This document shows, piece after piece, positions 1-40,069 of a DNA stretch of 64,000 nucleotides (position 1 is the first letter of the stretch; every line of letters begins with the position of its first letter). The DNA is from Candidatus Liptonbacteria bacterium (GTDB lineage Bacteria; Patescibacteriota; Minisyncoccia; UBA6257; 2-01-FULL-56-20): the NCBI GenBank assembly GCA_016212635.1, contig JACRFR010000018.1, forward strand, positions 4,080 to 68,079, written 5' to 3'. The position numbers and the translations under genes were made by a program. Below the pieces are notes generated by a model, which searched no databases, was not told the DNA's origin, and was given only the letters and a program-made list of their open reading frames with translations.

Positions 1-3000
1 TTCTCCCCGGGAAAGATGACATCCGGGATGTCATGCGCTCGATTCAGGCGAAGGCGGAGCAGCTCAAGTGCGAAGGCAATGTCGAAGTTTTGTCTTGCCA
101 TGGGGAATCGACTCCCGAGGAGCAGGATCGTGTGCAGACACCACTCAAGCCCGGCACGCTGCGGTTTGTTTGCGGCACGGAAGTGCTTCGCTCGTCAGTG
201 ACGGTTCAAAATACCATTGGCATTATCGATTCGCTTCAGATCAAACGTCTGATAAGTGATGCAAAAGGCGTTGGCCACTTGGACAAGATTGCGGTTTCGA
301 AAGCCGAAGCCGATCAAGGAAAGGGACGCGCGGGCCGGACCCGCCCGGGATTCTATATGCCCGTGTCATTCGGATCGGAATATGAACGTCTGAACCCCTA
401 TCCGACTCCCGCTATATTACAGCAACCCATTACGAACGTAGTCCTTCAAGTTGCGGCCATTGACCGCTCGGCGCGGGATTTCGCATTCATTGATAAGCCA
501 CCGGCGGACAAACTTGAAACCGCGCTTACTCGCCTGAAGCGAATTGGTGCGCTGGACGCGGAAGAGAAAATAACCGAAGCCGGAGAAATGCTGGTGCAGT
601 TCCCGCTTGATCCGGAGCGGGCGAAGGTACTTCTCGTCGCGGAGAAACTCGGCGTGCTTTCCGAAGCGGTTATTGCGGCGGGAGTGCTCGAGGCAGAAAA
701 TGTTTTCTTCAGCCCAAACCGCGAACAGAAAACGTGCATGGTCGAAGAGACAGTGATGCGAAAAATTCTTTCGCATGTCGAAAAGGAGGAAAGGTATGGA
801 AGCGAATATTGGAAAAAGTTGTATGAACCACGCGATCCGGCAACTGTTGATATTGCCATCTTGCCAAAGTGGGCGAAGAAAAAAGGAGAGTATTGGGAAG
901 TCGACATTTCCGATTATGACTTTCCAATCGAAGATGGTGTCCGGGGAATTTCTAATGTGGTTCGCAAACAATGGGCAGGCAAAGATAAAAGCGACTTCGC
1001 AACCATTGTGCGGGCGTACCGTGCGTTTAAGGGCGAAGAGCGGCGGCTCCGCGATGCAGAACCTCCGCGCGAGCCTGGTCAGCAAAGAGAATCTCCCACA
1101 ACATGGAGGCGGAATATGCTTCAAGCGTGGTGCGAGCGCAATTTCATAAATCAGAAACGCATGCGCGAAGCCGAGCGAATCATGCATGAAATTCTTGATG
1201 AGCTTGATAACTCGCCGCTTCGTACGGAAAACCGCATTGCCTATAATCGCGACTTCAATGCCGAGTCATTAACCAAGGCGCTCGCTGCAGGACTTACGGA
1301 CAATGTCGCCCGAAAAAGCGGACGAGGTTTTACGGGCCCAATCGTCGAACGAGGACAGGATTTTCAGATCGGGCGGGAATCGGTGTGCCCAGATGGAAGC
1401 GAGCTTGTGATTGTGAGCGGCGTGCGTAAAATCCCGACACGGCGCCAAAGCTTCTTTTATCTCGCCGACCTCGCAGCGCCCATCAAGAAAGAATGGCTCA
1501 AGGAGGTCATGCCGCAACTTTGCACAAGCCGCCGAGAAGCAGATGCCGCGTACAGTCCCGACGCCGATGCAGTTCTTGAGACGGAAGCTTCGTTTTACGC
1601 CGATTTGGACCTTGGCCGCGAAAAAGTTCCCGCACCTTATACCGCCGAAAACGCACAGCGATTTGCCCGATGGCTCGCGGGATATAATGCAGCTCGGGAT
1701 ACAAAAAACGAGAAGCTTAAAGCTGTGCTTTTGGCCAACGATATGCAACAACAGCGTGCTACGAACCTGAACCTTCGTGTCGGAGAGGCGAAACTAAAAC
1801 AGTATTCAAACGAAGAAGTTTTTGCATTTTATTCTGAAAAATTGGCCGGTGCTTGGAAGCAGTCGGAGGTGGAAAACTCCGACGACTTACGCCTTCCGCC
1901 GCTCGAAGATGCTGAAGTCGAAAAGATACTTGCGCTTTACCCCGACAAGATATCCATTCTCGGGTCTGATGCTGAAGTTACGTACACTCAGCAGAGCAAA
2001 CGATCCGAAACTGGAGAATACGCGAATGTCATGGTTGCCCGAGTAAATCTCGGGGATCTTTCGGAGGGAAATAAATGGATGCAACTTCCGGAAGAAGGGG
2101 TAAAGCTGCCAAGCGGTTTCGTGGCAGAAATTCAGGTTTCTATAAAACGGGACGGATCCTATTGGAGCGAGAATTTCTCGAATACCGATATTGTCGCCTT
2201 GAAGGAAAAAATCACGGGGTACTTGAATCGTTCATTATGGGAGGAGTGGAAAGAACGTCCGGAAATTACAGCCCCTAATCCGGAAGATGATGATGCGGTT
2301 TTGCCCGCTATTACAACGGCTTCATATGGAACGTCTGTTGTGGATGGAACACCTCTAATGGCTTACGGCACGGTAGTCTTTAATTCCAATCGATACTATT
2401 CAACCGATCCTAGTTTCAAAACAGAATGGTTTTCGGTTCGTTTGGAGGCGGAAGAGTCCCACGCAAAAGCCGGAACGGAACTAGATAGCCTGAAAAAAGA
2501 GCGGCGCGATCAGAGAGAACTGAAAAGCGCGCAGGAAGCCGCGCAGCAATCCAAGGATCGGCTGAATAAGCTTTATGACCAGTACTACTACTCCGAAATA
2601 GATTCCGAGATGCGGAGTAAATTATACAACCGACGTTATGAATCGCTTCCATACCAAGCGTCGGAACTCAAGCAATGGAAAGCTGAGATCGACGCAACCA
2701 TCGCGGAGGTGGAAAGCGCGGTGGTCGAGGCGAATCGCAAAGGGGAGGAGGAAAACCAGCTACTTCTGAATTCTGCTCGTCCGATTGTCATGCCGGGAGA
2801 GACTACCAACGAGAACACCGTGTACGGGATGCCCTGCAACGAAGAAGGTCCCTGCGATGCGGATGTCGCCACCGAATGGCGGTTGTACTCTTACCAAGAC
2901 AGAAGATTACGGCCACACAAAGGATATCGTTCCAAATCATATGGCACCACCTTTGCGGAACTGATCCAAGATTATTTGCGCGACGATCCGAATTTGGATG

Positions 3001-4481
3001 CCGTACTGCGACAACTGACCCCGGAAGATTACCGGCGAGGCGAAAAGATCGGGGAAACATTGAAAGCGGTTCTGGACCAAGATTATGCCAGCTGCATAAT
3101 CTGCAAGGAATCTTGGCGCTGGGACGCGGAGGAGCTCAGTAATCCCCAGCGGGAGCCGCGCATTTCTTGTTCCTGTATGCACGAGGTGTCGAAATGGAGC
3201 CCGATTATCCAAGCGATCGAAAACGGCTTAGCGGGCGAAACCGTGGAGGTGGACGGGCGCACCGGCTCGGTCCTGCGGCGAACCACAGTGGACGGGAAGA
3301 CAGCCGTGGAAACCGCCGTGTATTTTAAGTACGGACACTGGAACTTGGCAGTGATCGTTAACCGCAGCGCGTTGGCCCACCCGGGAGTCCCGGAAACGCA
3401 AGACGTCTGGCACCAGCCGACCTCCGCGGAGATAGAGCTGGCCCATACCGAACGAGAAAAGGATGCTGTTTTGAGCAGGCTCCAGAGTGAATTGTCGAAC
3501 TACGAGTACGATCTGGAATCCGCTAACCGTTCTGCGGAAGAAGGATCAGTCCACAAAATTCAGTTTCGAAGAGGCAAGAACCCGAAAACCAACAAAGAGC
3601 AGTGGGAGGCCGATGTGAAAACGGCGGATGGTATAAGCTTGAAACTCATTTTGGACAGCAAGGATAAGACCGTCCCCAAGGACGGAGTAAATTATTTCTG
3701 TCGCGAATATCGCCGCCTTGTAGATAATCCCAAATTCAAGTTAATAATAGTTACTCCGTATTTGGAAGAGGGACGTAACATACAGGCAGAAATTGAAGAG
3801 ACGACCACAAAATTCGACTCGCAGATTGCCATGGCTAGGGTGCGGGTGGAAGAGGAGAAGAAACAAGCAACAGAAGCGAAGGCGGAAGCCGCAACCCCAG
3901 ATCTTGCAACTAAACTTCAGTCGGCCTTGGGATCACGGGTCGAACCAAAAAGGAATGGTACCGTTACCGGTCCTCCGCCTCTCCCGCCGAAAGAATCTTT
4001 CGAAAAAGCAAAATCAGTACCCGAGCCGGAGGTTATGACACCGGAACTCCAGAGAGAATTTATGGAGATGCTGGATGTTGCTGATGTATTGGTTAAAAGA
4101 ATGGTGGCAGAGGGACTCAAATTAAATGACCAACAGCGCGATTTGTTGCGAAGCACGCGCAAAGGACTGGAAGATCTGGTCGGCCGACCTGCGAGCATTC
4201 GTGGCCACATACGGACGGTTCTCGCGGCTATTGAATCGCAATACAAAAAGAAAGGCGTGGAAGCGGGATGGACAAAGAGAGTTTTGGAACTCTGGAATGC
4301 CGTGAATCAGGTAATTGCAGATAATCCCGACGCGCAAGAATATGTCCGTGAGGGTGTTGTAACCCAGGGGGCTCTCGCAGAAGAAGTGCGCAAGAAAATT
4401 CTTGCATCAACCCCGCTCATCCAGAGCGGAAGGGAAATAGATGTAAGCAATCTGCTTTTGGAGCAGATGCAGGAGTTATAA
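1..4481 (+). CDS. 5'-truncated giant protein. The N-terminal part matches the C-terminal region of a DEAH/HrpA-type RNA helicase (HA2 + OB-fold region), followed by a ~1000-aa coiled-coil/charged extension with a Cys cluster.
   Basis: The frame is open from the window edge. Motifs TNVVLQVAAID, LDAEEKITEAGEMLVQFPLDPERAKVLL (HA2) and WCERNFINQKRMREAERIMHEIL are typical of DEAH helicases downstream of the helicase core. The long C-terminal region includes CIICKESWRWD...SCSCMHE. Confidence 0.6.
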   Translation, partial: LPGKDDIRDVMRSIQAKAEQLKCEGNVEVLSCHGESTPEEQDRVQTPLKPGTLRFVCGTEVLRSSVTVQNTIGIIDSLQIKRLISDAKGVGHLDKIAVSKAEADQGKGRAGRTRPGFYMPVSFGSEYERLNPYPTPAILQQPITNVVLQVAAIDRSARDFAFIDKPPADKLETALTRLKRIGALDAEEKITEAGEMLVQFPLDPERAKVLLVAEKLGVLSEAVIAAGVLEAENVFFSPNREQKTCMVEETVMRKILSHVEKEERYGSEYWKKLYEPRDPATVDIAILPKWAKKKGEYWEVDISDYDFPIEDGVRGISNVVRKQWAGKDKSDFATIVRAYRAFKGEERRLRDAEPPREPGQQRESPTTWRRNMLQAWCERNFINQKRMREAERIMHEILDELDNSPLRTENRIAYNRDFNAESLTKALAAGLTDNVARKSGRGFTGPIVERGQDFQIGRESVCPDGSELVIVSGVRKIPTRRQSFFYLADLAAPIKKEWLKEVMPQLCTSRREADAAYSPDADAVLETEASFYADLDLGREKVPAPYTAENAQRFARWLAGYNAARDTKNEKLKAVLLANDMQQQRATNLNLRVGEAKLKQYSNEEVFAFYSEKLAGAWKQSEVENSDDLRLPPLEDAEVEKILALYPDKISILGSDAEVTYTQQSKRSETGEYANVMVARVNLGDLSEGNKWMQLPEEGVKLPSGFVAEIQVSIKRDGSYWSENFSNTDIVALKEKITGYLNRSLWEEWKERPEITAPNPEDDDAVLPAITTASYGTSVVDGTPLMAYGTVVFNSNRYYSTDPSFKTEWFSVRLEAEESHAKAGTELDSLKKERRDQRELKSAQEAAQQSKDRLNKLYDQYYYSEIDSEMRSKLYNRRYESLPYQASELKQWKAEIDATIAEVESAVVEANRKGEEENQLLLNSARPIVMPGETTNENTVYGMPCNEEGPCDADVATEWRLYSYQDRRLRPHKGYRSKSYGTTFAELIQDYLRDDPNLDAVLRQLTPEDYRRGEKIGETLKAVLDQDYASCIICKESWRWDAEELSNPQREPRISCSCMHEVSKWSPIIQAIENGLAGETVEVDGRTGSVLRRTTVDGKTAVETAVYFKYGHWNLAVIVNRSALAHPGVPETQDVWHQPTSAEIELAHTEREKDAVLSRLQSELSNYEYDLESANRSAEEGSVHKIQFRRGKNPKTNKEQWEADVKTADGISLKLILDSKDKTVPKDGVNYFCREYRRLVDNPKFKLIIVTPYLEEGRNIQAEIEETTTKFDSQIAMARVRVEEEKKQATEAKAEAATPDLATKLQSALGSRVEPKRNGTVTGPPPLPPKESFEKAKSVPEPEVMTPELQREFMEMLDVADVLVKRMVAEGLKLNDQQRDLLRSTRKGLEDLVGRPASIRGHIRTVLAAIESQYKKKGVEAGWTKRVLELWNAVNQVIADNPDAQEYVREGVVTQGALAEEVRKKILASTPLIQSGREIDVSNLLLEQMQEL

Positions 4482-4630
4482 TTTGTTTTATTTATTGGGC
4501 GTCTTGCCTTCTCCGGCTTTTAGTCGCCTTGTGGCTGTTCTCGGTTATCAACTACCCCGCCTGGACTCTCAAGAGGGTTGGCGTCATCCCTTGTGGTATG
4601 CCAAACCAAACACAAGCGCCAGTTGGGGCT

Positions 4631-5926
4631 ATGGCCAAAGAAATTCAAGCCCCCACAAAGGTCAGATACGTACTTTACGCAAGAAAAAGCATGGAATCGG
4701 AGGAGTAACAAATTTTGAGCATCGACAGCCAAATCAAAGAGATGCTCGCCATGGCGGAACGCGACCACCTTGAGATTGTGGAAATCAAAAAAGAGTCGCA
4801 CTCCGCCAAGGAGGCCGGACAGCGGCCGGTGTTCAATGAGATTGTAGAGGAAATAAAAAGTGGCAAGTTCAACGGCATCCTCACCTGGGCCGCTGATCGC
4901 ATCTCACGAAATGCTGGGGATCTCGGAAGGATTGTAGACCTCATGGATAGCGGGAAGCTCATCGAGATACGCGCCTACGGGCAGAAATTCACGAATAGTC
5001 CGAACGAGAAGTTTCTCCTCATGATCTTAGGCAGCCAGGCAAAGCTCGAGAACGACAACAAAGTAGTGAACGTGAAGCGAGGACTTAGAGCCAGATGCGA
5101 GATGGGATTATGGCCCTGCACCGCACCCACGGGATACCTAAACAGCACGAGTAAGGAGAAAAGCTGCGTGGTGGAGATTGATTCACACCGGGCATCCGTG
5201 GTTAAAAAGATGTTTGAAAAGGTGGCTTATGAAAATATGAGTGGCCGGCGTTTGCACGCATGGCTCAAGGATGAAGCTAAGTTCAGGGTAAGGAGTGGAA
5301 AGCCACTCACGATCGGTAATATCTACATCACCCTGCGGAATCCATTTTACTACGGATCATTTGAATATCCGAAAGGCGGAGGTCAGTGGTATACCGGCAA
5401 ACACACACCAATTATCACCAAGGAGCTTTTCGACATGGTGCAGGAAAAAATGGCGAACTATGCGGTACGGGGAGGAACAAAAGAATTCGCCTTCACGAAA
5501 CTCATGACCTGCGGATTATGCGGATCTGGTATCACGGCCGATGAAAAATTCAAGAAACAACAGAACGGCAACGTGCATCGGTATGTCTACTACGGCTGCT
5601 GCCGGTTCCAGGATAAGAATTGCAAATCAGGATACATGCGAGAGGAGGATTTGATCGAACAACTTGCAAACCTAATGGATGAAATCCATCTCGACGAGAT
5701 TGGTATGAAAGAACGAATCAAAACCGAAATCGAGCGGCACAAGAAATTCCAATCAGGACTACTTGGCATCAAAGAGAAAGCGGTCAAAGCCGGAGACATC
5801 GACGTGCGCAACTACGCCAAATACATCCTACGGGACGGAACAATGCTCGAAAAACGAGAGCTGCTATCCTGCCTGCGAAGTAAGATCACGATGGCGAAGA
5901 AAGAAGTGAAAATCGCGACTGCCTAA
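4631..5926 (+). pseudogene. Large serine recombinase (resolvase/invertase N-domain, recombinase domain and zinc ribbon) interrupted by an in-frame TAA at 4706-4708.
   Basis: ATG 4631 gives MAKEIQAPTKVRYVLYARKSMESEE*, which is the YARxS catalytic-serine motif. The same frame resumes as QILSIDSQ...DRISRNAGDLGRIVDLMDSGKL...CGLCGSGIT...YYGCCRF. The ORF track starts only at TTG 4715, after the stop. Confidence 0.7.
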
Positions 5927-5937
5927 ATAAAGCTGGG

Positions 5938-6492
5938 CTAGATGATTGACGGAGCAACTCGACTTGATTGAAAAGTCCAACCTCGCTCTGTAACTAATTC
6001 CCATAAGTTAAGACATTTAACGCCAAATAACGGATCATCGCAAACATTTGGCAGCTTATAGTTCTCAGGATCAGTGCTACCACTGTGAGTTTCTTCAGAA
6101 ATGATTTTAAGTTTGTGTAGTTTGGCCTGAGCAATAAGCCATGGATCCGCATAGACATCACTAGCTTTGTTTTTATTATTAACAAAAACTTTATACGTCA
6201 CGGACATGCTCCTGATAATCTTTCCCTCTATATCCTCATCGTGATTCTTGAAAATATGCTCATTGGCATGAGCCCAATTGTAGAGTTCCTCGCCCTTCTT
6301 CCCGTCTTTCTTTATTTCCGCCAATACCTCAGCGTGGGAGATGATCACTCCTTCGGCCATCAGTTCTTTGATCCTTTCCCAGAGGCCAGGATTAACACTC
6401 TTTGATATCCACGGCGTTTCGCTGAAAATTGACATCAAGGAGCAACTATCAATGGTATATTCTGCGGGTTTAGAAAAGAGATCACCTGGCAT
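5938..6492 (-). CDS. PIN-like (DUF4411-like) putative nuclease, co-operonic with the upstream XRE-ImmA gene.
   Basis: 184 aa with an 11-nt overlap with the upstream gene. N-terminal YTIDSCSLMSIF and later conserved acidic residues are consistent with a PIN-like fold. The DUF4411 assignment is from memory of that family's association with ImmA/IrrE genes. Confidence 0.4.
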   Translation of the reverse strand: MPGDLFSKPAEYTIDSCSLMSIFSETPWISKSVNPGLWERIKELMAEGVIISHAEVLAEIKKDGKKGEELYNWAHANEHIFKNHDEDIEGKIIRSMSVTYKVFVNNKNKASDVYADPWLIAQAKLHKLKIISEETHSGSTDPENYKLPNVCDDPLFGVKCLNLWELVTERGWTFQSSRVAPSII

Positions 6493-7675
6493 GAGAGTGT
6501 ATTAGTTTTTCCAACCCAGGCAAATGCTTCATCTTCAATCCAAGGTAATCTGAGATTCCCGAATACGGTATTTTTTTCTGCTTGTAAGCCTCAAAAACAA
6601 GAGAGCTAAAACCCACGCCATTTTTTGACAAGATAGTCTTCAGGGAAAATCTCCCACCCTTCTTCCCATTCGGCCGGGGTTCACCATCCCATTTTTTTGT
6701 TTTGGCTTCGTAAATTGCCGAAGTAACATAATTGAATGTTAGCAACCTCCTCAAAATTACCACTCGGCTCACTTTGAAATCAAAAGCTATCCGCTCAATT
6801 TTAGAATCGAGGTCCTCGGGGGATATTTTTGTCTTATCTTTCAAAGTTCTATGCTTTAAGAATTCCGCCTCCGGTACCAAGAAGCTGGCGGCGAACTGGT
6901 TGCAAAAAACCTCAAGCTTATTTATCCCATTCTTGTGACCGCTGAAAGATTTGAAGTTGTTGCAAATACCGGCTTCACGTAGAAGAACGTGCGCAAATTC
7001 ATGCGCCAAAGAAAAGTTCTTTGCTCCTTCAGTATCCTTATTGTTCACAAAAACCAGATATGGCTGTTGGTCAGCGAAAGAGAAAGCACGACAATCTGTT
7101 ATTGGAAAACTATCGTGAAGACCGCTTTTTAGGGTTATCACGCCCGCACTTTCGATTTTGTTCCGTAGGTACTCGAAGAAATCCTCGTACTTCTTGAAAC
7201 CAAATTGCTCATTTGCCGAAATCAAAAGGTCAGCTCTTATGTTTTCCGCTAATTCTGAAGCGTTCTCATCTAAGGAATGCCGTGCATATTTAAAAAAAGG
7301 TCTTTCGCCGAGTTCTTCATGGAGATCTGCGGATACCTCTTGAACTCTTCTCGCTTTTCTAATAGCCAAGAGTGCCGCCGGAGATAAGAGCTTATTATCT
7401 TCCGAGTTGATAGTTCTGAGATCTGGCGGATCCTTTTTTTCTTTCGGTGGACCATCGAGAAAGAATACGGCCAGGGGTCGTTTATATATTTCCGCGAGTT
7501 TTCTTACCTGTGCGAAGGTCGGCTGAGCAATTCCATTTTCCCACTCCTTAATGAGATCGGGGGTGACTTCTTTCCATGATTCAACCCAATTGGCCAGCAA
7601 AATTTCCATTTTTGGGCCAAATCTTTTTTCACGTGCCCATTTCAATACTACAGGTTCAAATCTCAAATCTGCCAT
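6482..7675 (-). CDS. Fusion of an XRE-family HTH domain and an ImmA/IrrE (COG2856, M78-like) zinc metallopeptidase.
   Basis: N-terminal HTH (QPTFAQVRKLAEIYKRPLAVFF) and an HEFAHVLL HExxH motif mid-protein. 397 aa. Confidence 0.8.
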   Translation of the reverse strand: MADLRFEPVVLKWAREKRFGPKMEILLANWVESWKEVTPDLIKEWENGIAQPTFAQVRKLAEIYKRPLAVFFLDGPPKEKKDPPDLRTINSEDNKLLSPAALLAIRKARRVQEVSADLHEELGERPFFKYARHSLDENASELAENIRADLLISANEQFGFKKYEDFFEYLRNKIESAGVITLKSGLHDSFPITDCRAFSFADQQPYLVFVNNKDTEGAKNFSLAHEFAHVLLREAGICNNFKSFSGHKNGINKLEVFCNQFAASFLVPEAEFLKHRTLKDKTKISPEDLDSKIERIAFDFKVSRVVILRRLLTFNYVTSAIYEAKTKKWDGEPRPNGKKGGRFSLKTILSKNGVGFSSLVFEAYKQKKIPYSGISDYLGLKMKHLPGLEKLIHSHAR

Positions 7676-7836
7676 AACTAAATTATAGCAATAAACAGCC
7701 CCGAAAAAACATCTGGTAAAAACTTATAACCGCCTTTCAAAGAGGTAATCTAGACAGCTTCTTAGCGGTTATTTACTCTTTCGTACTCGTTCTATTCGTC
7801 TTGACTGGTTAGAAGAAAGTCGGCATTTAAGCCTCA

Positions 7837-7880
7837 TGGTCGGTCTCACTGCGTTGTGCCCTCGAGAGGAATCGAACCCA
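7837..7880 (-). repeat. Degenerate copy of the 3' half of tRNA-Arg plus its 16-nt downstream flank (att-like direct repeat).
   Basis: GGTTCGATTCCTCTCGAGGGCACAA + CGCAGTGAGACCGACC aligns with the T-arm/acceptor/3' flank of the tRNA at 9084-9127. The flank is identical and the tRNA part has about 6 mismatches. The T-stem can no longer pair, so it is not a functional tRNA. Confidence 0.55.
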
Positions 7881-7956
7881 GTAAAACTCTCCCCTAGATG
7901 ACGGCGAATTGCCACGGGGCAGACACGTATTGTTGGTTACAGTACTGAAGTTTTAT

Positions 7957-9051
7957 TTAAAGAGTTGCAAACAACCCCAACTCTATACCGATGTCGTATG
8001 CCTCATCCACAGAACACGTCATGATTTTTCTATAGCTTTTCCGGCCAAACCTTTTTTCGACAGCTCTGGCCAGGGGCAATATTTTGCCATCAATCCTTGC
8101 CTGCTCTGCGAGATTTTGGAACTCCGGGATTTCTGCTCTTAGGCGTGAGACAAGAAGGAAAGCGGCGGCAGATTGGGAGCCAAAACTTACAGTACTACCG
8201 TCAAAATTAAATATCCTCCGAGATTCTTCCGGGAAGTTGTCTAGCCGCGGATCTTTTTCGGCCACATAGTTCAGTAACTTAGCGTACAAAGCTTTTCCTT
8301 TGGGAAATTGTGTTTGGAGTAAGTTGTCTGCGTCTTCTTCTGCGAGCATGGCTAGACCCTCTTCGACCGCCGGAGTTTGTAGACCTGCCTCGCATCTAAT
8401 ATATCCCAAACCTCTCCGCTCCAAAGGCTTTACGCTATCGAAAACATGTTCATTTTCTCCAGTCGCCTTGTTTCGCACGGTGCGAAACAGAAGAGAAAAC
8501 GGTGCGGCATCGTGGTATAGCTCATGTAGAACTTGGCGGGCCTCAATATATTCTCTTACTGCTTTTGCGGCACCCGGCCTAGTCATTCCGCCTAAACTTT
8601 TTTCATCTGTCATGGCAATTGGGTGAAAATGATCATCATCCCTTATTCTTTGATCGAGAGAACTGGGCACAAGTTTTTCTTTTGTTAAATTATGTAGGAC
8701 GATATATCCGAAGCTAGTGCCCGCCCGGAGGGCAGTTATGTTCCCCTCCTCCATAGAAGATGGGTTCCGCAATTTAAAGATGCGTTCTTGTTCTGTCCAT
8801 CGTATTGGACTCAACACACCAAATTTACAAAATCGCTTCTCGTGCCACCGTCTAGCCCGGGAACTGAAATTTCGCATCTCGACCGACAGTTCAATAGTTC
8901 CTTCTTTGGCCGTTCGTGCTACTTCGTTCATTGTCACTTTAACACCCATTCTAGTTCTGGAGATTCTTTGCCTCTCTTTCTTGTCTAGTAAGTCTGCAGA
9001 CCGTTCCTTGTTGAGAATAAAGTTTTCTCCTGGCCTGGTAAAGTTTCTCAT
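7957..9051 (-). CDS. Hypothetical protein (364 aa) lying between the tRNA-derived direct repeats.
   Basis: Long ORF with no motif I can assign. Bounded by the 7837-7880 and 9084-9127 repeats. Confidence 0.5.
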   Translation of the reverse strand: MRNFTRPGENFILNKERSADLLDKKERQRISRTRMGVKVTMNEVARTAKEGTIELSVEMRNFSSRARRWHEKRFCKFGVLSPIRWTEQERIFKLRNPSSMEEGNITALRAGTSFGYIVLHNLTKEKLVPSSLDQRIRDDDHFHPIAMTDEKSLGGMTRPGAAKAVREYIEARQVLHELYHDAAPFSLLFRTVRNKATGENEHVFDSVKPLERRGLGYIRCEAGLQTPAVEEGLAMLAEEDADNLLQTQFPKGKALYAKLLNYVAEKDPRLDNFPEESRRIFNFDGSTVSFGSQSAAAFLLVSRLRAEIPEFQNLAEQARIDGKILPLARAVEKRFGRKSYRKIMTCSVDEAYDIGIELGLFATL

Positions 9052-9100
9052 AATAATTGCTGCATGCTTGTATTATTGCGCCTCGGTCGGTCTCACTGCG

Positions 9101-9175
9101 TGGTGCCCCCGGCAGGAATCGAACCTGCATCACCTCCTTCGGAGGGAGATATCCTATCCGTTGAACGACGAGGGC
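9101..9175 (-). tRNA. tRNA-Arg (anticodon CCG), 75 nt with encoded CCA.
   Basis: Folded by hand. Acceptor GCCCTCG/CGGGGGC, D-arm, anticodon stem TCTCC/GGAGG with loop CTCCGAA (U33, A37), 4-nt variable loop, T-arm GCAGG-TTCGATT-CCTGC, discriminator A, CCA. Confidence 0.85.
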
Positions 9176-9180
9176 GGAAG

Positions 9181-9212
9181 ATGATCATTGATTATTAATC
9201 ATTGATTATTAA
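9181..9212. promoter_or_regulatory. Tandem palindromic motif (TGATTA-N-TAATCA x2) directly upstream of tRNA-Arg. The same motif recurs at 46088-46118.
   Basis: ATCATTGATTATTAATCATTGATTATTAA contains two overlapping 13-bp palindromes. A 20-nt core TATTAATCATTGATTATTAA is shared with the 46-kb locus. Confidence 0.45.
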
Positions 9213-9223
9213 GCGGCACGCTC

Positions 9224-10306
9224 TCACCCTAGCATGAAAAAGTAAAGTTCGCAAACTGCGGCTGCGGCGAAGGCGGCGGCGGCCAGGGTTAGCAGCCACG
9301 ACTTAAAGCCGCTGGGCCGCAGGACCGAGCGCACAACCAGAGCCAGTAAGACGTACTGGATGGCCAGGAACAGGCCGCCGACAAAACCGATGGTTCGGAT
9401 CACGTCCGCGGACCGGAATGCGATCGCGAGGAGAAGCGGCAGGAGCGCCACCGCGAGATCGGTCGCGAACTCCGGAATGCGCGCGCCCTCCCGCAGGGAA
9501 CGGAGCACTTCGCGGCCGACCGGCACATAAGAGGTCCAGATCGCCGTCAAGCCGCAAAACGCGATGGTCCGAACCAGCGAACTCGACTCGCTGCCGAAAC
9601 CCAGGATGGCGGCGGCAAAGATCGCATAGACTACGGCCACCACCGCGGCCGAGACGGCAAACATCCCCGGGGCGCCAAATGATGTTCTGGCATACTTCCG
9701 GCGCAGAACCGCCACCGGCTCCACCGCTGTCCAGCCGGTTAGGGCGAACAGGATGGCGCCGAACGGCAAAAAGGCCGCCGCGAGATTCACGCGCGGCTCG
9801 CCCCGAAAGGTCAGATCGGGCGCGAGCACCGCGAGGAGCAGCACGATGCCAACCAAAAGGAGGGTGCCCACGGCCTCGGCCCGGGCGAAGCGCCGGATCC
9901 CGATAAAAAGCGGTAGGGTGGAAACCACCCAAAGCAGCAGGAGCGCCGGCCAACCTAAGAGTCCCGGCAATAAAGTCTCCACGAAAGCGGAGCCGAGTTG
10001 CAAGTAAATGAAAAGGGTCAGGAGGTTGCCGCAGATGATCGCCAGAAGTCCGGCGGTTCCGGCCAGGGGTCCGAGTCGAGATCGGACCAGCTCCAGGAGG
10101 CCCATCTTGTTGCCGGTTCGCACGAGCGCCTGGTAGTAGGCGGCGTGAAGCGCGGCTAGCGCGATCGAGAGCCCGACTAACCACGCTAAGGCAATGAGCC
10201 AGCCGGACTGGTGGAAGGTAACCGGCAGGGCAAAAATACCGGCGCCGATGGTCGTGCCGCCGACGATACTGATCGACCACCAGAACAGTTTACGGGAGTC
10301 GGACAT
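9224..10306 (-). CDS. Polytopic membrane transporter, amino-acid permease-like (APC/Trp-Tyr permease-like).
   Basis: 360 aa with about 10 hydrophobic segments. N-terminal GAGIFALP motif. Confidence 0.55.
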   Translation of the reverse strand: MSDSRKLFWWSISIVGGTTIGAGIFALPVTFHQSGWLIALAWLVGLSIALAALHAAYYQALVRTGNKMGLLELVRSRLGPLAGTAGLLAIICGNLLTLFIYLQLGSAFVETLLPGLLGWPALLLLWVVSTLPLFIGIRRFARAEAVGTLLLVGIVLLLAVLAPDLTFRGEPRVNLAAAFLPFGAILFALTGWTAVEPVAVLRRKYARTSFGAPGMFAVSAAVVAVVYAIFAAAILGFGSESSSLVRTIAFCGLTAIWTSYVPVGREVLRSLREGARIPEFATDLAVALLPLLLAIAFRSADVIRTIGFVGGLFLAIQYVLLALVVRSVLRPSGFKSWLLTLAAAAFAAAAVCELYFFMLG

Positions 10307-10320
10307 GGGGAGTTAAGTGG

Positions 10321-10504
10321 AACCCATCTCCAAAGTAGGAAATTAATAAAGGTAGAGGAAGGGATTTTGCCCAAAATGGTTATTTTCGGCTGCAAAACCT
10401 GAAAACCTCCTAGAAATAGCTACGGCTATTCCTTCGTCAGTTTTCATGTTTTTCGCTCGAAAATTTCTCATTTTGGCCTAAAACCTACTTTGGAGATGGG
10501 TTCT
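10321..10504. repeat. 184-bp near-perfect long palindrome (foldback) with 20-bp perfect terminal arms GAACCCATCTCCAAAGTAGG / CCTACTTTGGAGATGGGTTC.
   Basis: The arms are at 10321-10340 and 10485-10504. The interior is itself largely self-complementary (TTTTGCCCAAAATGG...CATTTTGGCCTAAAA) with a central GAAATAGC-TACG-GCTATTCC stem. It overlaps the 3' end of the RNase gene. Confidence 0.6.
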
Positions 10505-11847
10505 AGCTCTATAGTTTCATTTTCCCGAGGCACACGGCTGGTCGCGCCCAGGTCGTGGTGAATTTTGCCGGCCAGGGTCTCGCTGGCTCCCGCCTCCCCC
10601 TGAACCACGAACACGCTTTGGAGCGCGGCGGCTCGGGGGCGGAGCCAAGACAAGAGGCGCGGCTGGTCGGCGTGCGCGGAATAAGCAGTGATCGAACGGC
10701 GCTCGCAGCGGATCGGCACTCGTTCCCCGAAGATGTGAACCTCCGGAGCGCCTTCCATTATTTGGCGGCCCAGGGAGGACACCGATTGATAACCCACAAA
10801 GAGAATCATACTTTGGGGATCGGGGAGGTAGCGCAGCTCGTGGTGGAGAATGCGGCCGCCTTGGGACATGCCGGAACCGGCAATAATGATCTTGGGCGGC
10901 GGCACATTATTGATGTCTTTGGACTGTTCCGTGGTCAGAGTCAGGCGCAACCCGGGAAAGTTTAAGATGTCGTCTCCGGAGCGAACCAGGCTGGAGGCTT
11001 CGCGATTGAAATAATTCTCGTATTTCTTGTAAACGGCGGTCATTTTGATCGCGAGCGGGCTGTCCAGAAACACCGGCACCCGAGGCACGCCGCGATGCTC
11101 AAAGGCCTCGTTCAAATGATACAAGATTTCTTGGGTCCGTTCGAGAGCGAAGGTGGGGATTAGGAGGGTGCCACGGCGAGCTATGGTGTCGCGCACGGCC
11201 TGCTCCAAGTCTTCTTGCCGGTTCGCTTCGCGCTCATGGACCCGGTCCCCATAGGCAGATTCAACCACGCAATGATCCGCCTCGGGCATGGGTTCGGTGG
11301 ATCGGACAATGGGCGCGGGACTGTTGCCCAGGTCGCCGGAGAAAACAATGGTGCGTTCGCGCGAGCGGATTTGGATAAAAGCAGAACCGAGAATGTGACC
11401 GGCATCGAAAAACTCCACATTGAACGGGCCGAGGGTAAGCGACTGGTGATACGGCAACGGCAACCACCGCTGCATAGTTCGATCCACGCTATCGATGGAG
11501 CATAAAGGGGAGCTGGCTTCGCGTTCCGCCTCTTTGCACAACACGTGCTCCGAGTCGATCAGGATAAGTTCCGCCAGGTCGCGGGTGGGCGGGGTGGAAT
11601 AGATCGAGCCGCGGAATCCCTCCCCGACCAGCTTGGGCAGGCGTCCCACATGATCCAGGTGCGCGTGAGTTACCAGCAGGGCGTTGATGTCCCGCGGCTG
11701 GAAGGCAAAAGGTTGGAAGTTTTCCCTCTCCGCAAAGTGACCGCCTTGGATCAGTCCGCAGTCGACCATCAGTCGAAAACCCCCCGATTCCAAGAGATAG
11801 TTGGCGCCGGTGACGCTCCCCGCTCCGCCGTAAAAAGTGATGCACAT
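10468..11847 (-). CDS. MBL-fold beta-CASP ribonuclease (RNase J / CPSF-like).
   Basis: HAHLDHVGRLP (HxHxDH) metallo-beta-lactamase motif and beta-CASP-like C-terminal region. 459 aa. Confidence 0.75.
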   Translation of the reverse strand: MCITFYGGAGSVTGANYLLESGGFRLMVDCGLIQGGHFAERENFQPFAFQPRDINALLVTHAHLDHVGRLPKLVGEGFRGSIYSTPPTRDLAELILIDSEHVLCKEAEREASSPLCSIDSVDRTMQRWLPLPYHQSLTLGPFNVEFFDAGHILGSAFIQIRSRERTIVFSGDLGNSPAPIVRSTEPMPEADHCVVESAYGDRVHEREANRQEDLEQAVRDTIARRGTLLIPTFALERTQEILYHLNEAFEHRGVPRVPVFLDSPLAIKMTAVYKKYENYFNREASSLVRSGDDILNFPGLRLTLTTEQSKDINNVPPPKIIIAGSGMSQGGRILHHELRYLPDPQSMILFVGYQSVSSLGRQIMEGAPEVHIFGERVPIRCERRSITAYSAHADQPRLLSWLRPRAAALQSVFVVQGEAGASETLAGKIHHDLGATSRVPRENETIELEPISKVGFRPK

Positions 11848-11857
11848 GAACGGTTAA

Positions 11858-11890
11858 CCCCACCTCACCTCCCCTAAGATAAGGGGAGGG
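11858..11890. repeat. Family-2 hairpin (CACCTCACCTCCCCT-AAGATA-AGGGGAGGG) between the co-directional Mur ligase and RNase genes.
   Basis: Read directly. Confidence 0.6.
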
Positions 11891-11928
11891 ACTAAGAACG
11901 GGTGTTTCTTAATTCAAGGTATTATAAG

Positions 11929-13281
11929 TCATGCTAACGGCTGGCGGAAGCCCATAGCTTTTAACGCCTCAGTCGCGACCGCGCGCTCATCCCAGCCAAC
12001 TTTGCGACCATTTATTTTCATCGCCGTTTCGCCGCCTTTGCCCGCCAGGAGCACCAGGTCTCCCGGCTCCGCCAGCGCCAGGGCTTTAGCTATCGCCTCC
12101 TTACGATCCACGATCTTAAAAATATTCTCGCCCAGTTTGCGCCGAGGATTTTGGAGCGCGCCTGCCGCCACCTGATCGATGATCAACGCCGGGTCTTCCT
12201 GGTAGGGATCGTCGGTGGTCACCACGATCACATCCGCGCCCCGGTCGGCGACCTCTCCCATGGCCGGCCGCTGCCAGCGGTCGCGGTGACCGGCGGCAAT
12301 ACCAGTCAAGACAATAGTCCGTCGGGGTTGGTAAATTCGGGTGGCGGCGAGCGCGGCCGCAAGACCGCTGGGATCGTAGGCGTAATCGATCAGGACCCGG
12401 AAGGGTTGCCCCAGCTTAAGTTCTTCCATGCGGCCCGCCACCGGCTCCGCCGCGGCCAGCGCCGCGCCGATCACGTTCCAAGACAAGCCGTGCGCCCGAG
12501 CGGCGGCCGCCGCGGCCAGCGAGTTTGCCGCGTTAAACTCCCCCACTAAACGAGTGGTTAGAACGATGCCATTTACAGAAAGACTGGTCCCGGCGGGGCC
12601 GAGTTCCAGGCGGTCGGCCAGTAATACCTCGGCCATTTGATCGCGGGCCGCGGCGCCTACGGCGGGGTTGCCGGTATCCAGGTAATAGCCGTACTTCGTG
12701 GCAACCGGAACCGCCAGAAAGTATTCGGCGTGGGCGTCGGCCAAGTTGTAAATTCCCACAGAACCCGGGCGGCGGGCGATAAGTTCGAACAGTTTGCGCT
12801 TGGCGGCGCGATAATTTTCCAGGCCGCCATGCTGATCCAGATGTTCCGGGTAAAGATTAGTGATCAGCGCGGCGTGATAGCGGATGAAACGGTGGCGATA
12901 CTGCCGGATGCCTTCCGAGGAGGTTTCGACTACGGCGTGGGTGCACCCGGCCCGGACCATGGCCCGGAGTAATTTCTGAAGCTGGAATCGTCCCAGCATG
13001 GTTTGGCGCGTGGTATTGCTCCACTCCCGATCTCGGATCCGGAAGTTGACCGTGGTTGCCAGACCGGTGGGCATCCCGGCCGCGTTTAAAATATGTGCGA
13101 TGAGATTGCAAGTGGTAGTCTTGCCTTTGGTGCCGGTCACCCCGATCACGGTCAAGCGGCGGGACGGAAAACCGTAAACCAGCGCGCCCAGAAAAGCCAG
13201 GGTCAGGTGATAAGCCGACAATAAAAACGGCAATCGGTACAGATACCGGACACCCGGAATTCGCTTTATTTTATCTAGCAT
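11929..13281 (-). CDS. Mur ligase family protein (MurE/MurF-like) with an N-terminal hydrophobic segment.
   Basis: VIGVTGTKGKTTT P-loop, DYAYDP (a DYAHNP-like motif). 450 aa. Confidence 0.7.
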   Translation of the reverse strand: MLDKIKRIPGVRYLYRLPFLLSAYHLTLAFLGALVYGFPSRRLTVIGVTGTKGKTTTCNLIAHILNAAGMPTGLATTVNFRIRDREWSNTTRQTMLGRFQLQKLLRAMVRAGCTHAVVETSSEGIRQYRHRFIRYHAALITNLYPEHLDQHGGLENYRAAKRKLFELIARRPGSVGIYNLADAHAEYFLAVPVATKYGYYLDTGNPAVGAAARDQMAEVLLADRLELGPAGTSLSVNGIVLTTRLVGEFNAANSLAAAAAARAHGLSWNVIGAALAAAEPVAGRMEELKLGQPFRVLIDYAYDPSGLAAALAATRIYQPRRTIVLTGIAAGHRDRWQRPAMGEVADRGADVIVVTTDDPYQEDPALIIDQVAAGALQNPRRKLGENIFKIVDRKEAIAKALALAEPGDLVLLAGKGGETAMKINGRKVGWDERAVATEALKAMGFRQPLA

Positions 13282-13397: not shown

Positions 13398-14039
13398 TTA
13401 AGGAAATAGGGGATTTTCTTCCACGATTTTCTGGCGAATGAGATTGTAGTAAGTATCGTCTCCGTACTCATACTTACGAAAGATGGCCCAAGAAGCAAAA
13501 TCTACGATTTGCAGGCTTGCTTCTTCTCTGGTTGATTTTATCTCTGCGGTCAGGCGCAGGGCATGGTTGCGTTCGGTCTGTTGTGCGAGGTACCACTTAA
13601 AGTTCTCGTTTAAAAACTTATTTGTCTGCCGGCGCGACGCGACGAGTGTGATTGGCTCATTTACCGGTAAAAGTTTCTTTCGATATATTCGATCGAGAAG
13701 TATGTTGGTAACGTAGTTGTATAAGACATCTTGTTCCGCTTGCAGATTGGTATATACCCGACGCTTATTAAGATAAATGCAAAGTATGCTGACGTCTTTC
13801 TCGGCCAAAAGCGAGAGGGTTTGGGTGCGCACTTTGGGTGATTCGTAGTGTGCGTGCAGTACGCCGACGTGCCGCTTCCTCTCACGTCCCGCTAGTGCGC
13901 GCCTGACTTTGCGCACGATTTTCTCCACCGGACCCTTGTGCGCGACAAAAAGCGCAGTGATTAAAAAATACTTAGTGGTTCGCTTTTTGGCGAAGTTAAA
14001 GCCCGAATCCCCGCTTTCATCCAGAAAGATGTGGACCAT
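13398..14039 (-). CDS. DUF3800-family protein.
   Basis: N-terminal IFLDESGDSGF signature. Confidence 0.55.
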   Translation of the reverse strand: MVHIFLDESGDSGFNFAKKRTTKYFLITALFVAHKGPVEKIVRKVRRALAGRERKRHVGVLHAHYESPKVRTQTLSLLAEKDVSILCIYLNKRRVYTNLQAEQDVLYNYVTNILLDRIYRKKLLPVNEPITLVASRRQTNKFLNENFKWYLAQQTERNHALRLTAEIKSTREEASLQIVDFASWAIFRKYEYGDDTYYNLIRQKIVEENPLFP

Positions 14040-22919: not shown

Positions 22920-23415
22920 ATTGCTTAAATAGGAACAGGCTAGCGCCAGCCAGCGCCAGGGCAACGCCCAGGGCCAACAGCATTATATCCCAAAAACTAC
23001 CCGCTGACCGAACCACTAGGCTGGAGGGATAGGTGTCTTGAGTTAGAACTGCCGCCAACTGGTTGGCTCGTCCCGGAGTCGGCTCCGAGAACCGGAAGTG
23101 GTTCCCAAATCGGCTGAAACTCCGCCCCTCCGACGCCGCACCCAGAAATGCCGCCTGGTCGGCCAACTGACCCCCGGCCGCATACAGACTGACTGCTCCG
23201 CCCTGATTCCCCAGGGTGAGTTTAGTTTCGGACCGAGCAAGCAGCGCATATCCATGGGGAGCGATAACTCCATCCAGGGCCACGCTTTTTTTATTCACCG
23301 CCAACTGCCAGTTTTGGAGATTGACCGGCGCGTCTCCGGTATTTACCAGCTCCACCCATTCGCCCCGGGCATCATTTCCTTTGGGGTTGGGCAGCCATTC
23401 GTTGATGAGAATCAT
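22843..23415 (-). CDS. Lamin-tail-domain (LTD) protein with a C-terminal transmembrane anchor.
   Basis: INEWLPNPKGNDARGEWVELVNTGDAPVNLQNWQL is the LTD signature. Confidence 0.6.
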   Translation of the reverse strand: MILINEWLPNPKGNDARGEWVELVNTGDAPVNLQNWQLAVNKKSVALDGVIAPHGYALLARSETKLTLGNQGGAVSLYAAGGQLADQAAFLGAASEGRSFSRFGNHFRFSEPTPGRANQLAAVLTQDTYPSSLVVRSAGSFWDIMLLALGVALALAGASLFLFKQYDQIYNLFFPRDSKTGSGLGANPLG

Positions 23416-23432
23416 ATTAAAGAGATTCGAAC

Positions 23433-25946: not shown

Positions 25947-25955
25947 GGGTCGCCT

Positions 25956-25973
25956 GTGGATAACTGTGGATAA
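25956..25973. promoter_or_regulatory. Two tandem perfect DnaA-box-like 9-mers (TGTGGATAA x2; TTATCCACAG x2 on the res strand), 10-30 nt upstream of the res start codon.
   Basis: CTGTGGATAACTGTGGATAACT. The same 12-mer CTGTGGATAACT occurs at 13299-13310, 17 nt upstream of the Mur ligase start. Confidence 0.5.
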
Positions 25974-25975
25974 CT

Positions 25976-26068
25976 TTGACTTTCTACATTAATCTCTGCT
26001 ATACTGCAGGCGTAGGAGAAATCCTACTACTCACGCGGTCCCGCCAAAAGCGGGATTTTCGCTTTTTA
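25976..26068 (+). ncRNA. Candidate ~55-nt plus-strand transcription unit between res and the NYN gene: a sigma70-like promoter (TTGACT-18-TATACT), a GTAGGA-GAAA-TCCTAC hairpin, then an intrinsic terminator (CCCGC-CAAAA-GCGGG + ATTTTCGCTTTTTAT).
   Basis: All elements were read directly from the sequence. It is oriented antisense to the res/NYN operon. Confidence 0.35.
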
Positions 26069-26737
26069 TACGTAAAATCTTTTGCCGGTATAAAATTTGC
26101 CAAAGTCAATATATTTATCTTTGATGCCATGTAATTCTCCTGCCACTTTCCCCCGCACGCCAGCAATGCCGATTTTTTTGCCTTTTACTTTCAGTCGTTC
26201 TATTGGTTTTAATAAATCCGAATCGCCAGAGAATAAAATGATTGCTGTCGCTTTTTCGGCATCATCCAGCATATCCATTGCTATTTCCACATCAAAATTA
26301 CACTTCGGCTCTTCAATTATCGTGCCGAATTTATTAAGCTCACTCATTAGCTCCTGAATCTTTTTCCTAACGCCTTCATCAAACAAAGTCAGCGTCCGGC
26401 GCTGGAAGAATAAGCCCTCGTCAATATTTTTTGGAATAAACTTCATCGGTTTTGTTCTTAAAATAGCGCCGGCCGTCCTAATGCGATTATGGAAAGCTTC
26501 GGAGTTTTTCTCGTCTCGCTCATTCAAGCCGTAATAAACCTTAACTTCTTTTATGTTGGGAAAGTTAAACAGTTGCTCCACTATGTCCTCTATGCGGAAT
26601 TTCCACCCTAGAACATCTTGCCAATGGAACATATTCGTTAAATCTAAATAAGCAAAGATTGATGTCTCTTTACTTATCCATTCCAAATAATCTTGTCTCA
26701 CAATAAACTTATTCAAAACGTCTCGTGGAATATCCAT
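26066..26737 (-). CDS. NYN-domain (LabA-like PIN-related) putative nuclease, encoded between the type III mod and res genes.
   Basis: ILFSGDSDLLKPIERLK and N-terminal acidic motifs. The start ATG 26737 lies 4 nt after the mod stop. Confidence 0.7.
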   Translation of the reverse strand: MDIPRDVLNKFIVRQDYLEWISKETSIFAYLDLTNMFHWQDVLGWKFRIEDIVEQLFNFPNIKEVKVYYGLNERDEKNSEAFHNRIRTAGAILRTKPMKFIPKNIDEGLFFQRRTLTLFDEGVRKKIQELMSELNKFGTIIEEPKCNFDVEIAMDMLDDAEKATAIILFSGDSDLLKPIERLKVKGKKIGIAGVRGKVAGELHGIKDKYIDFGKFYTGKRFYV

Positions 26738-26741
26738 AGCT

Positions 26742-38301: not shown

Positions 38302-38412
38302 TTTTATAAATAATAATACTAGTAGTAGTTAATAGTGGCTGGGGATGTGGGGATAAGAGGGATAAACCAAAGTAAATAATACCAAAAAAAAGGAAAGAAA
38401 TCCCCACAAATT
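38302..38412. promoter_or_regulatory. Candidate oriC/DUE region (AT-rich with imperfect DnaA boxes) between dnaA and dnaN.
   Basis: TGTGGGGATAAG and TCCCCACAAA are box-like sequences, and there are long A/T runs. Confidence 0.4.
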
Positions 38413-39783: not shown

Positions 39784-39934
39784 AAGTTAGAGGGTATTTT
39801 TCAGGTGCAATCATTCTACTCCCACCCAAACACAAGTCAAAACCAATTCCGAAGATATGGGGATTACTTGTTAAGAAGTGCCTACCCCCCAACCCCCTTA
39901 AATTTTGTATCAGTCTATGCTAGAGTAGCCTTAC

Positions 39935-40069
39935 ATGTCCACCACCTATCAACCCAAAAAGCGGAAAAGGGCCAAAACCCACGGGTTCCGGGCCAGGCGA
40001 CTTACCCCAACCGGACGACGGGTACTTACCCGCCGGCGCCAAAAGGGCCGCCGGAAGCTTAGTGTTTAA
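39935..40069 (+). CDS. rpmH: 50S ribosomal protein L34.
   Basis: [44 protein letters not shown]. Found by eye (44 aa, below the ORF-track cutoff). Confidence 0.85.

Follow-up and report, generated by a model that had tools for sequence, protein, structure and literature searches.

The tRNA-Arg locus and its direct repeat

The 64-kb stretch of DNA analysed here (the window) derives from a member of Candidatus Liptonbacteria, a tiny groundwater bacterium of the Patescibacteria (Candidate Phyla Radiation, CPR), and carries beside its sole tRNA gene a pair of direct repeats, which we regard as probable attachment-site cores of a composite genomic island. The tRNA gene, an intact and functional tRNA-Arg(CCG) at positions 9101–9175 on the minus strand (ARAGORN; Rfam tRNA model, 56.9 bits), had been recognised in an earlier reading of the letters without database searches (the sequence-only reading). 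It anchors the island and is the last gene of a host block with genes for a Mur ligase (MurE), a beta-CASP metallo-beta-lactamase RNase and a permease (9224–13281, minus strand), assigned to the host on the basis of domains, synteny and a G+C content (GC) of 0.57–0.62. The order and orientation Mur ligase/beta-CASP/permease/tRNA-Arg(CCG) are kept in approximately 15 relatives with 55–65% protein identity, and as this block represents conserved host synteny, the chromosomal side of the junction is the tRNA.

The DNA following tRNA-Arg(CCG) is different in each of these relatives. Among the loci and contigs used for comparison (L001–L061), it contains genes for an extracytoplasmic function (ECF) sigma factor, uracil-DNA glycosylase (UDG) and ClpB in L020, a HAD hydrolase and NusG in L022, and a large serine recombinase, GmrSD and an MvaI restriction-modification system in L014. 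With the exception of the serine recombinase, no homologues of the relatives' genes downstream of the tRNA were found in the window. The GC, a check of which the sequence-only reading had proposed, deviates on this side as well, being 0.42–0.48 at 5–9 kb and 0.49–0.53 at 1–5 kb, versus 0.57–0.62 to the right of the tRNA (9–13 kb). The conserved upstream side, the variable downstream side and the low GC together identify the 3′ end of tRNA-Arg as an integration hot spot, and the DNA to the left of it as compositionally foreign.

A repeat search of the window revealed that positions 7838–7878 and 9085–9125 are identical at 37 of 41 nt, in direct orientation; allowing for a 2-nt indel (GACC[AT]GAGGC) lengthens it to 7831–7878 versus 9080–9125, approximately 48 nt. 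The sequence-only reading had seen this repeat, with limits (7837–7880 versus 9084–9127) one or two bases too generous (37/43 over 7838–7880). The 16-mer CGCAGTGAGACCGACC, previously described as a perfectly conserved flank, occurs exactly twice in 64 kb (7838–7853 and 9085–9100); its conservation is indeed perfect, but it is no mere flank, being part of a ~50-nt unit that follows tRNA-Arg genes of four isoacceptors (see below). Core copy 1 (9080–9125, minus strand) reads GGTTCGATTCC TGCCGGGGGCA CCA CGCAGTGAGACCGACC GAGGC and spans the tRNA from the T-loop to the 3′ end of the acceptor, plus a 21-nt trailer. Core copy 2 (7831–7878, minus strand) stands alone, with no tRNA 5′ half upstream. It starts at the T-loop and comprises the T-loop, the 3′ strands of the T-stem and of the acceptor, and the trailer, so that the description of it as a copy of the T-arm and acceptor 3′ strand applies except that the whole T-arm is not included.

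The same reading took copy 2 for a decayed duplicate of the 3′ half of the local tRNA, which we reject. Copy 2 is of tRNA-Arg(CCT) type: it is identical at all 41 positions to the 3′ end and trailer of the tRNA-Arg(CCT) of L042 (8206–8246) and at 40 of 41 to that of L052, and its T-stem strand CCTCT pairs with the AGAGG of both these tRNAs and cannot pair with the GCAGG of the window tRNA. For the same two reasons copy 2 is no displaced native 3′ end. The wobble pair U5.G68 in the window tRNA was considered as a sign of a chimeric gene and dropped, since the tRNA of L012, which has no island signature, possesses the same wobble. Beside copy 2 lies a conserved arm (7809–7830, minus strand; ..ATGAGGCTTAAATGCCGACTTTCTTC..) common to the post-core sequences of L043, L056, L047, L039 and L042; blastn matches of the copy 2 region reach into it, to window positions 7809–7827. 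A structured RNA in the conserved flank was also considered and rejected: RNAalifold on eight sequences gave no conserved fold (−3.97 kcal/mol, little covariation), and an Rfam search of the flank returned no family other than tRNAs.

Between the two cores lies a ~1.2-kb cassette with a single gene, in agreement with the sequence-only reading. This gene, ORF364 (7957–9051, minus strand; 364 aa), has the orientation of the tRNA. Its start at 9051, 29 nt after core copy 1, is backed by homology. The product had no match in Pfam, NCBIfam, PHROGs, PADLOC or PDB sequences and could be assigned to no curated peptidase family; its only exact database match is a hypothetical protein from a Candidatus Liptonbacteria metagenome-assembled genome (MAG). 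Seven homologues share ~40% identity with it (the source is named for two, both Patescibacteria), and the family comprises 142 representative clusters. In an alignment of eight sequences HELYH (H176, E177, H180; within the invariant HELYHD) and EEGLA (E230, E231) are invariant, which gives an HEXXH motif with a downstream Glu ligand, as in gluzincins of clan MA, and a thermolysin-like catalytic fold was found as well; ORF364 is thus a putative gluzincin-type zinc metallopeptidase. These features and the lack of recombinase motifs led us to reject the idea that ORF364 is a hidden integrase. Counts of promoters and terminators in 7500–9400 were at background, and no terminator was found between the tRNA and ORF364, which is compatible with read-through expression and no proof of it. 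Homologues of ORF364 occur 53 nt after tRNA-Ala(GGC) in L001 (9873–11050) and 27 nt after tRNA-Gly(CCC) in L008 (1505–2637), in both cases in the direction of the tRNA; three of the five homologues with DNA at hand directly follow a tRNA. No direct repeats were found around the homologues after tRNA-Ala and tRNA-Gly.

Beyond core 2 and the arm, the domain searches bore out what the sequence-only reading had listed: an XRE-ImmA gene, a PIN-like gene and a stop-interrupted serine recombinase. The first gene of this recombinase-bearing element (6482–7675, minus strand) encodes a fusion of an XRE-type helix-turn-helix and ImmA/IrrE (Peptidase_M78; PF06114, 3.2e-17); the helix-turn-helix match (PF01381, HTH_3; E 0.0014, 19.0 bits) lies under the Pfam curated cut-off of 23, and the protein also matches phrog_2439 (4e-38) and resembles RmrA/CapP in PADLOC. 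The gene is overlapped by one for a DUF4411 (PIN-like) protein (5938–6492, minus strand; PF14367, 1.5e-24), and the two likely form a toxin-antitoxin-like or defence pair. On the opposite strand, reading toward the cores, follows the gene of a large serine recombinase (4598–5926, plus strand; Resolvase, Recombinase and Zn_ribbon_recom domains; phrog_95 integrase, 1e-51), whose nearest annotated relatives are phage integrases with 23–27% identity. An in-frame TAA at 4706–4708, six codons after the catalytic Ser (YARKS), stands where the intact recombinase of L045 (81% amino-acid identity) has Ala (GCT), and recurs in L059 and L060, two assemblies made independently; the gene is a pseudogene unless read through. 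L059, a per-run assembly, is 100% identical to window positions 3185–9129, from the T-stem of the tRNA through the recombinase, and hence the order core 1/ORF364/core 2/ImmA/DUF4411/recombinase is no artefact of the MAG.

Further left, a giant open reading frame (ORF) of at least 1492 aa (3–4481, plus strand) runs off the end of the window. It carries C-terminal domains of an HrpA/B-type helicase (Pfam Helicase_C, HA2_N and HA2_C; partial NCBIfam HrpB/HrpA), followed by a ~1250-aa extension that has no match in Pfam, PHROGs, or phage or plasmid records, where only the helicase part finds matches. The gene has no homologue in any related locus, and its GC (0.49–0.53) is below that of the host; whether it is part of the island is uncertain. 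The expectation that the gene at <4.5 kb would be the native neighbour of tRNA-Arg was not borne out, as no homologue lies beside tRNA-Arg in any relative.

Some observations concern other parts of the window. The arms of a perfect inverted repeat of 20 nt (GAACCCATCTCCAAAGTAGG; 10320–10339 and 10484–10503) are separated by 144 nt; one falls into the permease/beta-CASP gap, the other just within the beta-CASP ORF, at its 3′ end. At this place relatives carry ~0.85 kb of extra DNA. A weak DUF3800-like ORF (13398–14039; PADLOC E 0.001) is situated within a kilobase of 0.49 GC at 13–14 kb, and further low-GC stretches (0.39–0.49; host ~0.57), which may be foreign, were found at 23000–28000 and 38000–40000.

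Cores, cassettes and serine recombinases in related genomes

The repeat belongs to a family. A unit of ~50 nt, TTCGATTCC-N9-GCAC-NNN-GCAGTGAGACC-GACCGAGG, is located behind tRNA-Arg genes in L020, L022 (in both, GCAGTGAGACC follows tRNA-Arg(CCG)) and L037–L058. A scan of metagenome contigs with the pattern TTCGATTCC-N3-CG-N-G-N-GCAC-N3-GCAGTGAGACC detected it in 22 loci, following tRNA-Arg with the anticodons CCG, TCT, CCT and GCG, i.e. all four isoacceptors seen, and a more tolerant search gave 34 cores in 24 loci. The trailer is no universal feature of the tRNA, since it is missing from the tRNA-Arg(CCG) genes of many closer relatives (L012–L019, L024, L025 and L035). Several loci have more than one core: four in L051, three each in L038 and L057, and two each in L042 and the window; L044 has one orphan core.

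Ten cores (from the window, L038, L042, L044, L051 and L057) are orphans, lacking a tRNA 5′ half, and all of them start within ~2 nt of the T-loop. Across the cores, CAC-AAC-GCAGTGAGACC is invariant, and the T-stem and acceptor part of the orphans differs from the resident tRNA in the window, L051, L057 and L038. In L051, for instance, three orphan cores carry CCACG where the resident tRNA needs CCTGT, and L057 and L038 show similar mismatches. From this difference it follows that the variable left part travels with the inserted segment, and the invariant part suggests an exchange point at or just past the 3′ end of the tRNA.

A number of individual tRNA genes and fragments deserve mention. 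The tRNA-Arg(CCT) of L042 (8224–8296) has an acceptor mismatch, C5.A68 (GCCCCCG with CGAGGGC), and an orphan core 1.08 kb downstream (7133–7167) has G at the matching position, so that the tRNA looks like one with a swapped 3′ end. In L039, L048, L054 and L058 the tRNA-Arg anticodon is GCG, not the usual bacterial ACG. In L027 (18797–18930) tRNA-Arg(CCG) is succeeded, after ~30 nt, by a 3′ fragment (GAGGTTCAATTCCTCATGAGGGCAC) from another type of tRNA-Arg; the tRNA-Arg(CCG) lies 7.4 kb from beta-CASP versus the usual 2 kb, which suggests a replacement or insertion on the upstream side. Finally, L001 has a dense patch of tRNA-Ala(CGC) fragments (12200–13000), with the 5′ half in three tandem copies (12762–12914) and the 3′ end plus ~20 nt of flank twice more (12325–12367 and 12602–12650), possibly an analogous repeat system at another tRNA.

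Inserted segments became apparent when loci were compared. In L040 and L047 an identity of 92% covers the tRNA, the DNA upstream of it and the region of the ECF sigma factor; in L040 the ECF-sigma gene directly follows the core, and L047 has an additional 1.9 kb between core and sigma gene, which a decayed 3′ fragment of a tRNA (TTTGATTCCTGTAAGGGGC) closes off at the far end. Seven loci (L040, L041, L047, L051, L053, L055 and L057) agree in the tRNA and the DNA upstream of it, but immediately behind the core each of the seven begins a content of its own. The cassettes separated by orphan cores are 0.8–3 kb long, recombinase-free and made up of one to four genes, nearly all in the direction of the tRNA, with products of small, ordinary function, including an EEP nuclease/phosphatase, an EamA transporter, a Ham1 NTPase, a kinase-like ATPase, a methyltransferase and a fusion of orotidine-monophosphate (OMP) decarboxylase and guanylate kinase. 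Their genes are shared between loci and isoacceptors. An inositol-monophosphatase (IMPase) gene follows the core at both L053 (CCG) and L042 (CCT), and a gene for a 346-aa protein follows both the fourth core of L051 (a CCG locus) and the intact tRNA-Arg(CCT) of L052, with the shared homology beginning exactly at the core; a gene for a protein of 141–153 aa is common to cassettes of L047, L051 and L057. With a syntenic upstream side, a variable downstream side and repeats that bound inserts in L047, L038, L042, L051 and L057, the proposal of the sequence-only reading that a composite genomic island resides at this tRNA stands.

Large serine recombinases were found within ~2 kb of a core in five loci (the window, L043, L044, L045 and L057). 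The intact gene of L045 ends 116 nt past the trailer of an intact tRNA-Arg(CCT); the gene of L043 (~80% DNA identity to the window gene) is 1.5 kb from tRNA-Arg(TCT), and the order core/arm/XRE/ImmA/recombinase at this locus, with XRE and ImmA as separate genes, matches core 2/arm/XRE-ImmA/DUF4411/recombinase in the window. In L044 a 5′-truncated remnant (77% DNA identity to the window gene) sits beside the orphan core. A second lineage of serine recombinases is represented directly after the third core of L057, where the gene is intact, and in L014, where it abuts tRNA-Arg(CCG). No Phage_integrase domain, the mark of a tyrosine integrase, was detected in the island proteins of the window or in ~46 core-adjacent proteins from ten loci. 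L013 and L014 have different insertions after the tRNA, and no direct repeat was found within 7.8 kb at the recombinase island of L014. In L014 (13457–13503) the region coding for the recombinase C-terminus overlaps the T-loop and acceptor of the tRNA-Arg in antisense, and in L057 (8303–8394) the corresponding region overlaps a tRNA-like fragment in antisense (peptide ..LGIEPRS..); L057 also has a 44-nt piece (CCCGCTAGTGmGACCGAGCGGGGTTCGATTCCAAGAAAGrGCAC) repeated on both sides of the conserved flank.

Possible origins of the island

The explanation we favour, and consider probable, is that of a composite island whose two repeats are ~50-nt attachment-site cores, marking a docking point behind tRNA-Arg genes in this clade of Patescibacteria. 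Each core would consist of the T-loop and acceptor 3′ strand of tRNA-Arg and the conserved trailer AAC-GCAGTGAGACC-GACCGAGG. The island would then be read as tRNA-Arg(CCG) with core 1, the 1.2-kb recombinase-less cassette, core 2, and a recombinase-bearing element with the arm, XRE-ImmA, DUF4411, the large serine recombinase and possibly the giant helicase gene. In analogy with the staphylococcal cassette chromosome mec (SCCmec) and the Enterococcus cassette chromosome (ECC), the serine recombinase would join a core on a circular element to the core at the 3′ end of the tRNA, with the crossover placed within the invariant CAC-AAC-GCAGTGAGACC, so that the tRNA would stay intact. Each inserted segment would bring its own tRNA-like half-site, which would account for core 2 being of CCT type. 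Cassettes that lack a recombinase would be gained or swapped in trans, with expression by read-through from the side of the tRNA. The sequences themselves show the repeat, the hot spot, the recurring arrays, the left boundary of the cores at the T-loop, the sharing of cassettes among loci and the association with a serine recombinase; from these and the analogy we infer that this enzyme is the catalyst, where the crossover falls and that transcription is shared with the tRNA. In view of the nonsense codon in the recombinase gene, the island is probably fixed in this genome. A more far-reaching version, which we put forward only tentatively, is that in a clade of Patescibacteria tRNA-Arg may serve as an SCC-like and integron-like platform for gene capture, at which a large serine recombinase, recognising the ~50-nt core, would stack and exchange small recombinase-less cassettes at any isoacceptor, with expression by read-through and with the trailer spreading as a footprint that prepares the ground for more captures.

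A number of points weigh against the favoured explanation. For this genome neither an excised circle nor an empty site nor a recombination junction came to light, and a search via the permease for empty-site contigs of the same population turned up nothing but one 1.2-kb contig, which breaks off within the tRNA. The core pattern had no matches in viral contigs (IMG/VR), i.e. no free attP-like site was found there. Serine integrases normally have no need for long identity between attP and attB, and no convincing dyad symmetry was recognised in the core by eye. Two unrelated lineages of serine recombinase are involved, and the left boundary of the island is outside the window, with any distal third core out of view. 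Besides, L051 has four cores with no recombinase within 11 kb; the trailer also occurs with housekeeping-like genes behind it (in L020, those for ECF sigma factor, UDG and ClpB; L040); and the chimeric-looking stem of the L042 tRNA (C5.A68) suggests variable crossover positions, as would be expected of homologous recombination and not of exchange at a fixed dinucleotide.

These last three points speak for an alternative that dispenses with a dedicated recombinase altogether and that we regard as unlikely. According to it, the trailer is native, the ~50-nt identity among tRNA-Arg loci and foreign DNA drives RecA-type recombination, and the serine recombinases are passengers; the outcome would be copied fragments, exchanged 3′ ends and adjacent genes moved to other places. 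That the trailer follows four different isoacceptors, that the same genes come after cores at CCG and CCT loci, and that mixed acceptor stems are found not only in L042 but also in the window and L052 (GCCCUCG with CGGGGGC) would all be expected on these grounds. Such a process, however, does not sit well with the common starting position of all ten orphan fragments in the T-loop, nor with the absence of the trailer from the tRNA-Arg(CCG) of many relatives. Homologous exchange between two loci alone makes no duplicated core around a new segment, and serine recombinases lie beside cores far above what is expected from ~0.17 Mb, by a rough estimate.

Less probable still is that the repeats, in which the sequence-only reading saw the classic attL/attR arrangement, are the attL/attR of one or more tyrosine-integrase islands at the tRNA 3′ end, the integrase having been deleted or lying beyond the window. 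A direct repeat of a tRNA 3′ end is the textbook signature of such islands, and the island does run past the left end of the window, but the repeat-bounded segment holds only the peptidase-like gene, the survey of core-adjacent proteins produced recurrent serine recombinases and no tyrosine integrase, the window recombinase itself lies outside the repeats, and copy 2 is ruled out as a displaced native 3′ end. The last alternative, that the repeat arose by chance, by chimeric assembly or by partial local duplication of the tRNA with decay, could draw on the breaking of per-run assemblies inside the tRNA (L059 at 9129, L061 at ~9141) but is effectively refuted by the match of 37/41 versus a maximum of 26/41 for the next-best ungapped match of the 41-mer on both strands of the window, which excludes chance, by the identity of L059 from core 1 to the recombinase, by copy 2, which resembles foreign tRNA-Arg(CCT) genes more closely than the local one, and by the same architecture in five other loci.

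Implications and comparison with known systems

Little has been described of the mobile elements of Patescibacteria, or of the ways in which these bacteria, with their tiny genomes, acquire genes; we found no literature on serine-recombinase or tRNA-Arg islands in this group. Islands linked to tRNA genes are in themselves nothing unusual. What deserves a systematic survey is the ~50-nt tRNA-Arg core that recurs in CPR bacteria, together with the cassette arrays and the association with serine recombinases. If the favoured explanation is correct, all arginine tRNA genes would offer one and the same conserved 50-nt landing site, small genes for metabolism and defence would be moved between loci and genomes, and the system would represent a compact analogue of SCCmec or of integrons with a different combination of recombinase and target. 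It might also offer natural pairs of serine recombinase and attachment site, with a tRNA-based multi-copy target, of use for genome engineering. For annotation, it would mean that tRNA 3′ fragments in these genomes are cassette-borne copies of the site and not decayed duplicates.

Of the systems compared, phage serine integrases (phiC31, Bxb1, A118 and phiFC1) have the same Resolvase/Recombinase/zinc ribbon architecture. They differ in their short attB and attP sites, which have little identity in common and usually lead to disruption or abutting of protein genes, whereas here a ~50-nt shared core is found at a tRNA and is duplicated. Integrons (IntI, attI, attC) are similar in their small, apparently promoter-less cassettes that point in one direction and are bounded by copies of the site, with the recombinase at the end of the array. 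The enzyme in our case is a serine and not a tyrosine recombinase, it occupies the end opposite to the presumed promoter, i.e. the tRNA, and the repeat is a conserved direct sequence without the folded hairpin of attC, so that the likeness is one of resemblance only.

Tyrosine-integrase islands and prophages at tRNA genes (P4-like elements, integrative and conjugative elements (ICEs) and cis-mobilisable elements (CIMEs)) have in common with the window an intact tRNA at one end and a repeat of the tRNA 3′ end at the other, tandem arrays with copies of the repeat, some integrase-free members and an atypical base composition. In contrast to these, no tyrosine integrase was found for the island, within the repeat-bounded segment or among the other proteins scanned; its repeat extends ~25 nt past the tRNA into a trailer conserved across isoacceptors, and its orphan copy is of foreign type.

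SCCmec elements form composites in tandem. Insertion of SCC and ECC elements at the 3′ end of rlmH is carried out by CcrAB serine recombinases; direct repeats of ~50 bp accompany it, the cargo varies, and there are remnants without a recombinase (PMC6222049). The putatively mobile tRNA-Arg islands likewise possess a large serine recombinase with Resolvase, Recombinase and zinc ribbon domains (a pseudogene in the window, intact in L045 and L057), insert at the 3′ end of a conserved gene that is left intact, are bounded by direct repeats of similar length (46–48 nt, two to four copies per locus in the window, L038, L042, L051 and L057), and show highly variable cargo, tandem composites and remnants lacking a recombinase. 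They are distinct in their target, which is tRNA-Arg with its trailer and not rlmH, and in the core, GCAGTGAGACC and not TATCATAA. A single recombinase replaces the ccrA/ccrB pair; it is only ~25% identical to phage serine integrases. The cassettes are very small (0.8–3 kb, in the direction of the tRNA), and the host belongs to the CPR. With these differences in mind, an SCCmec/ECC-type element, moved by CcrAB or CcrC, is the closest analogue and the best fit among the systems considered.

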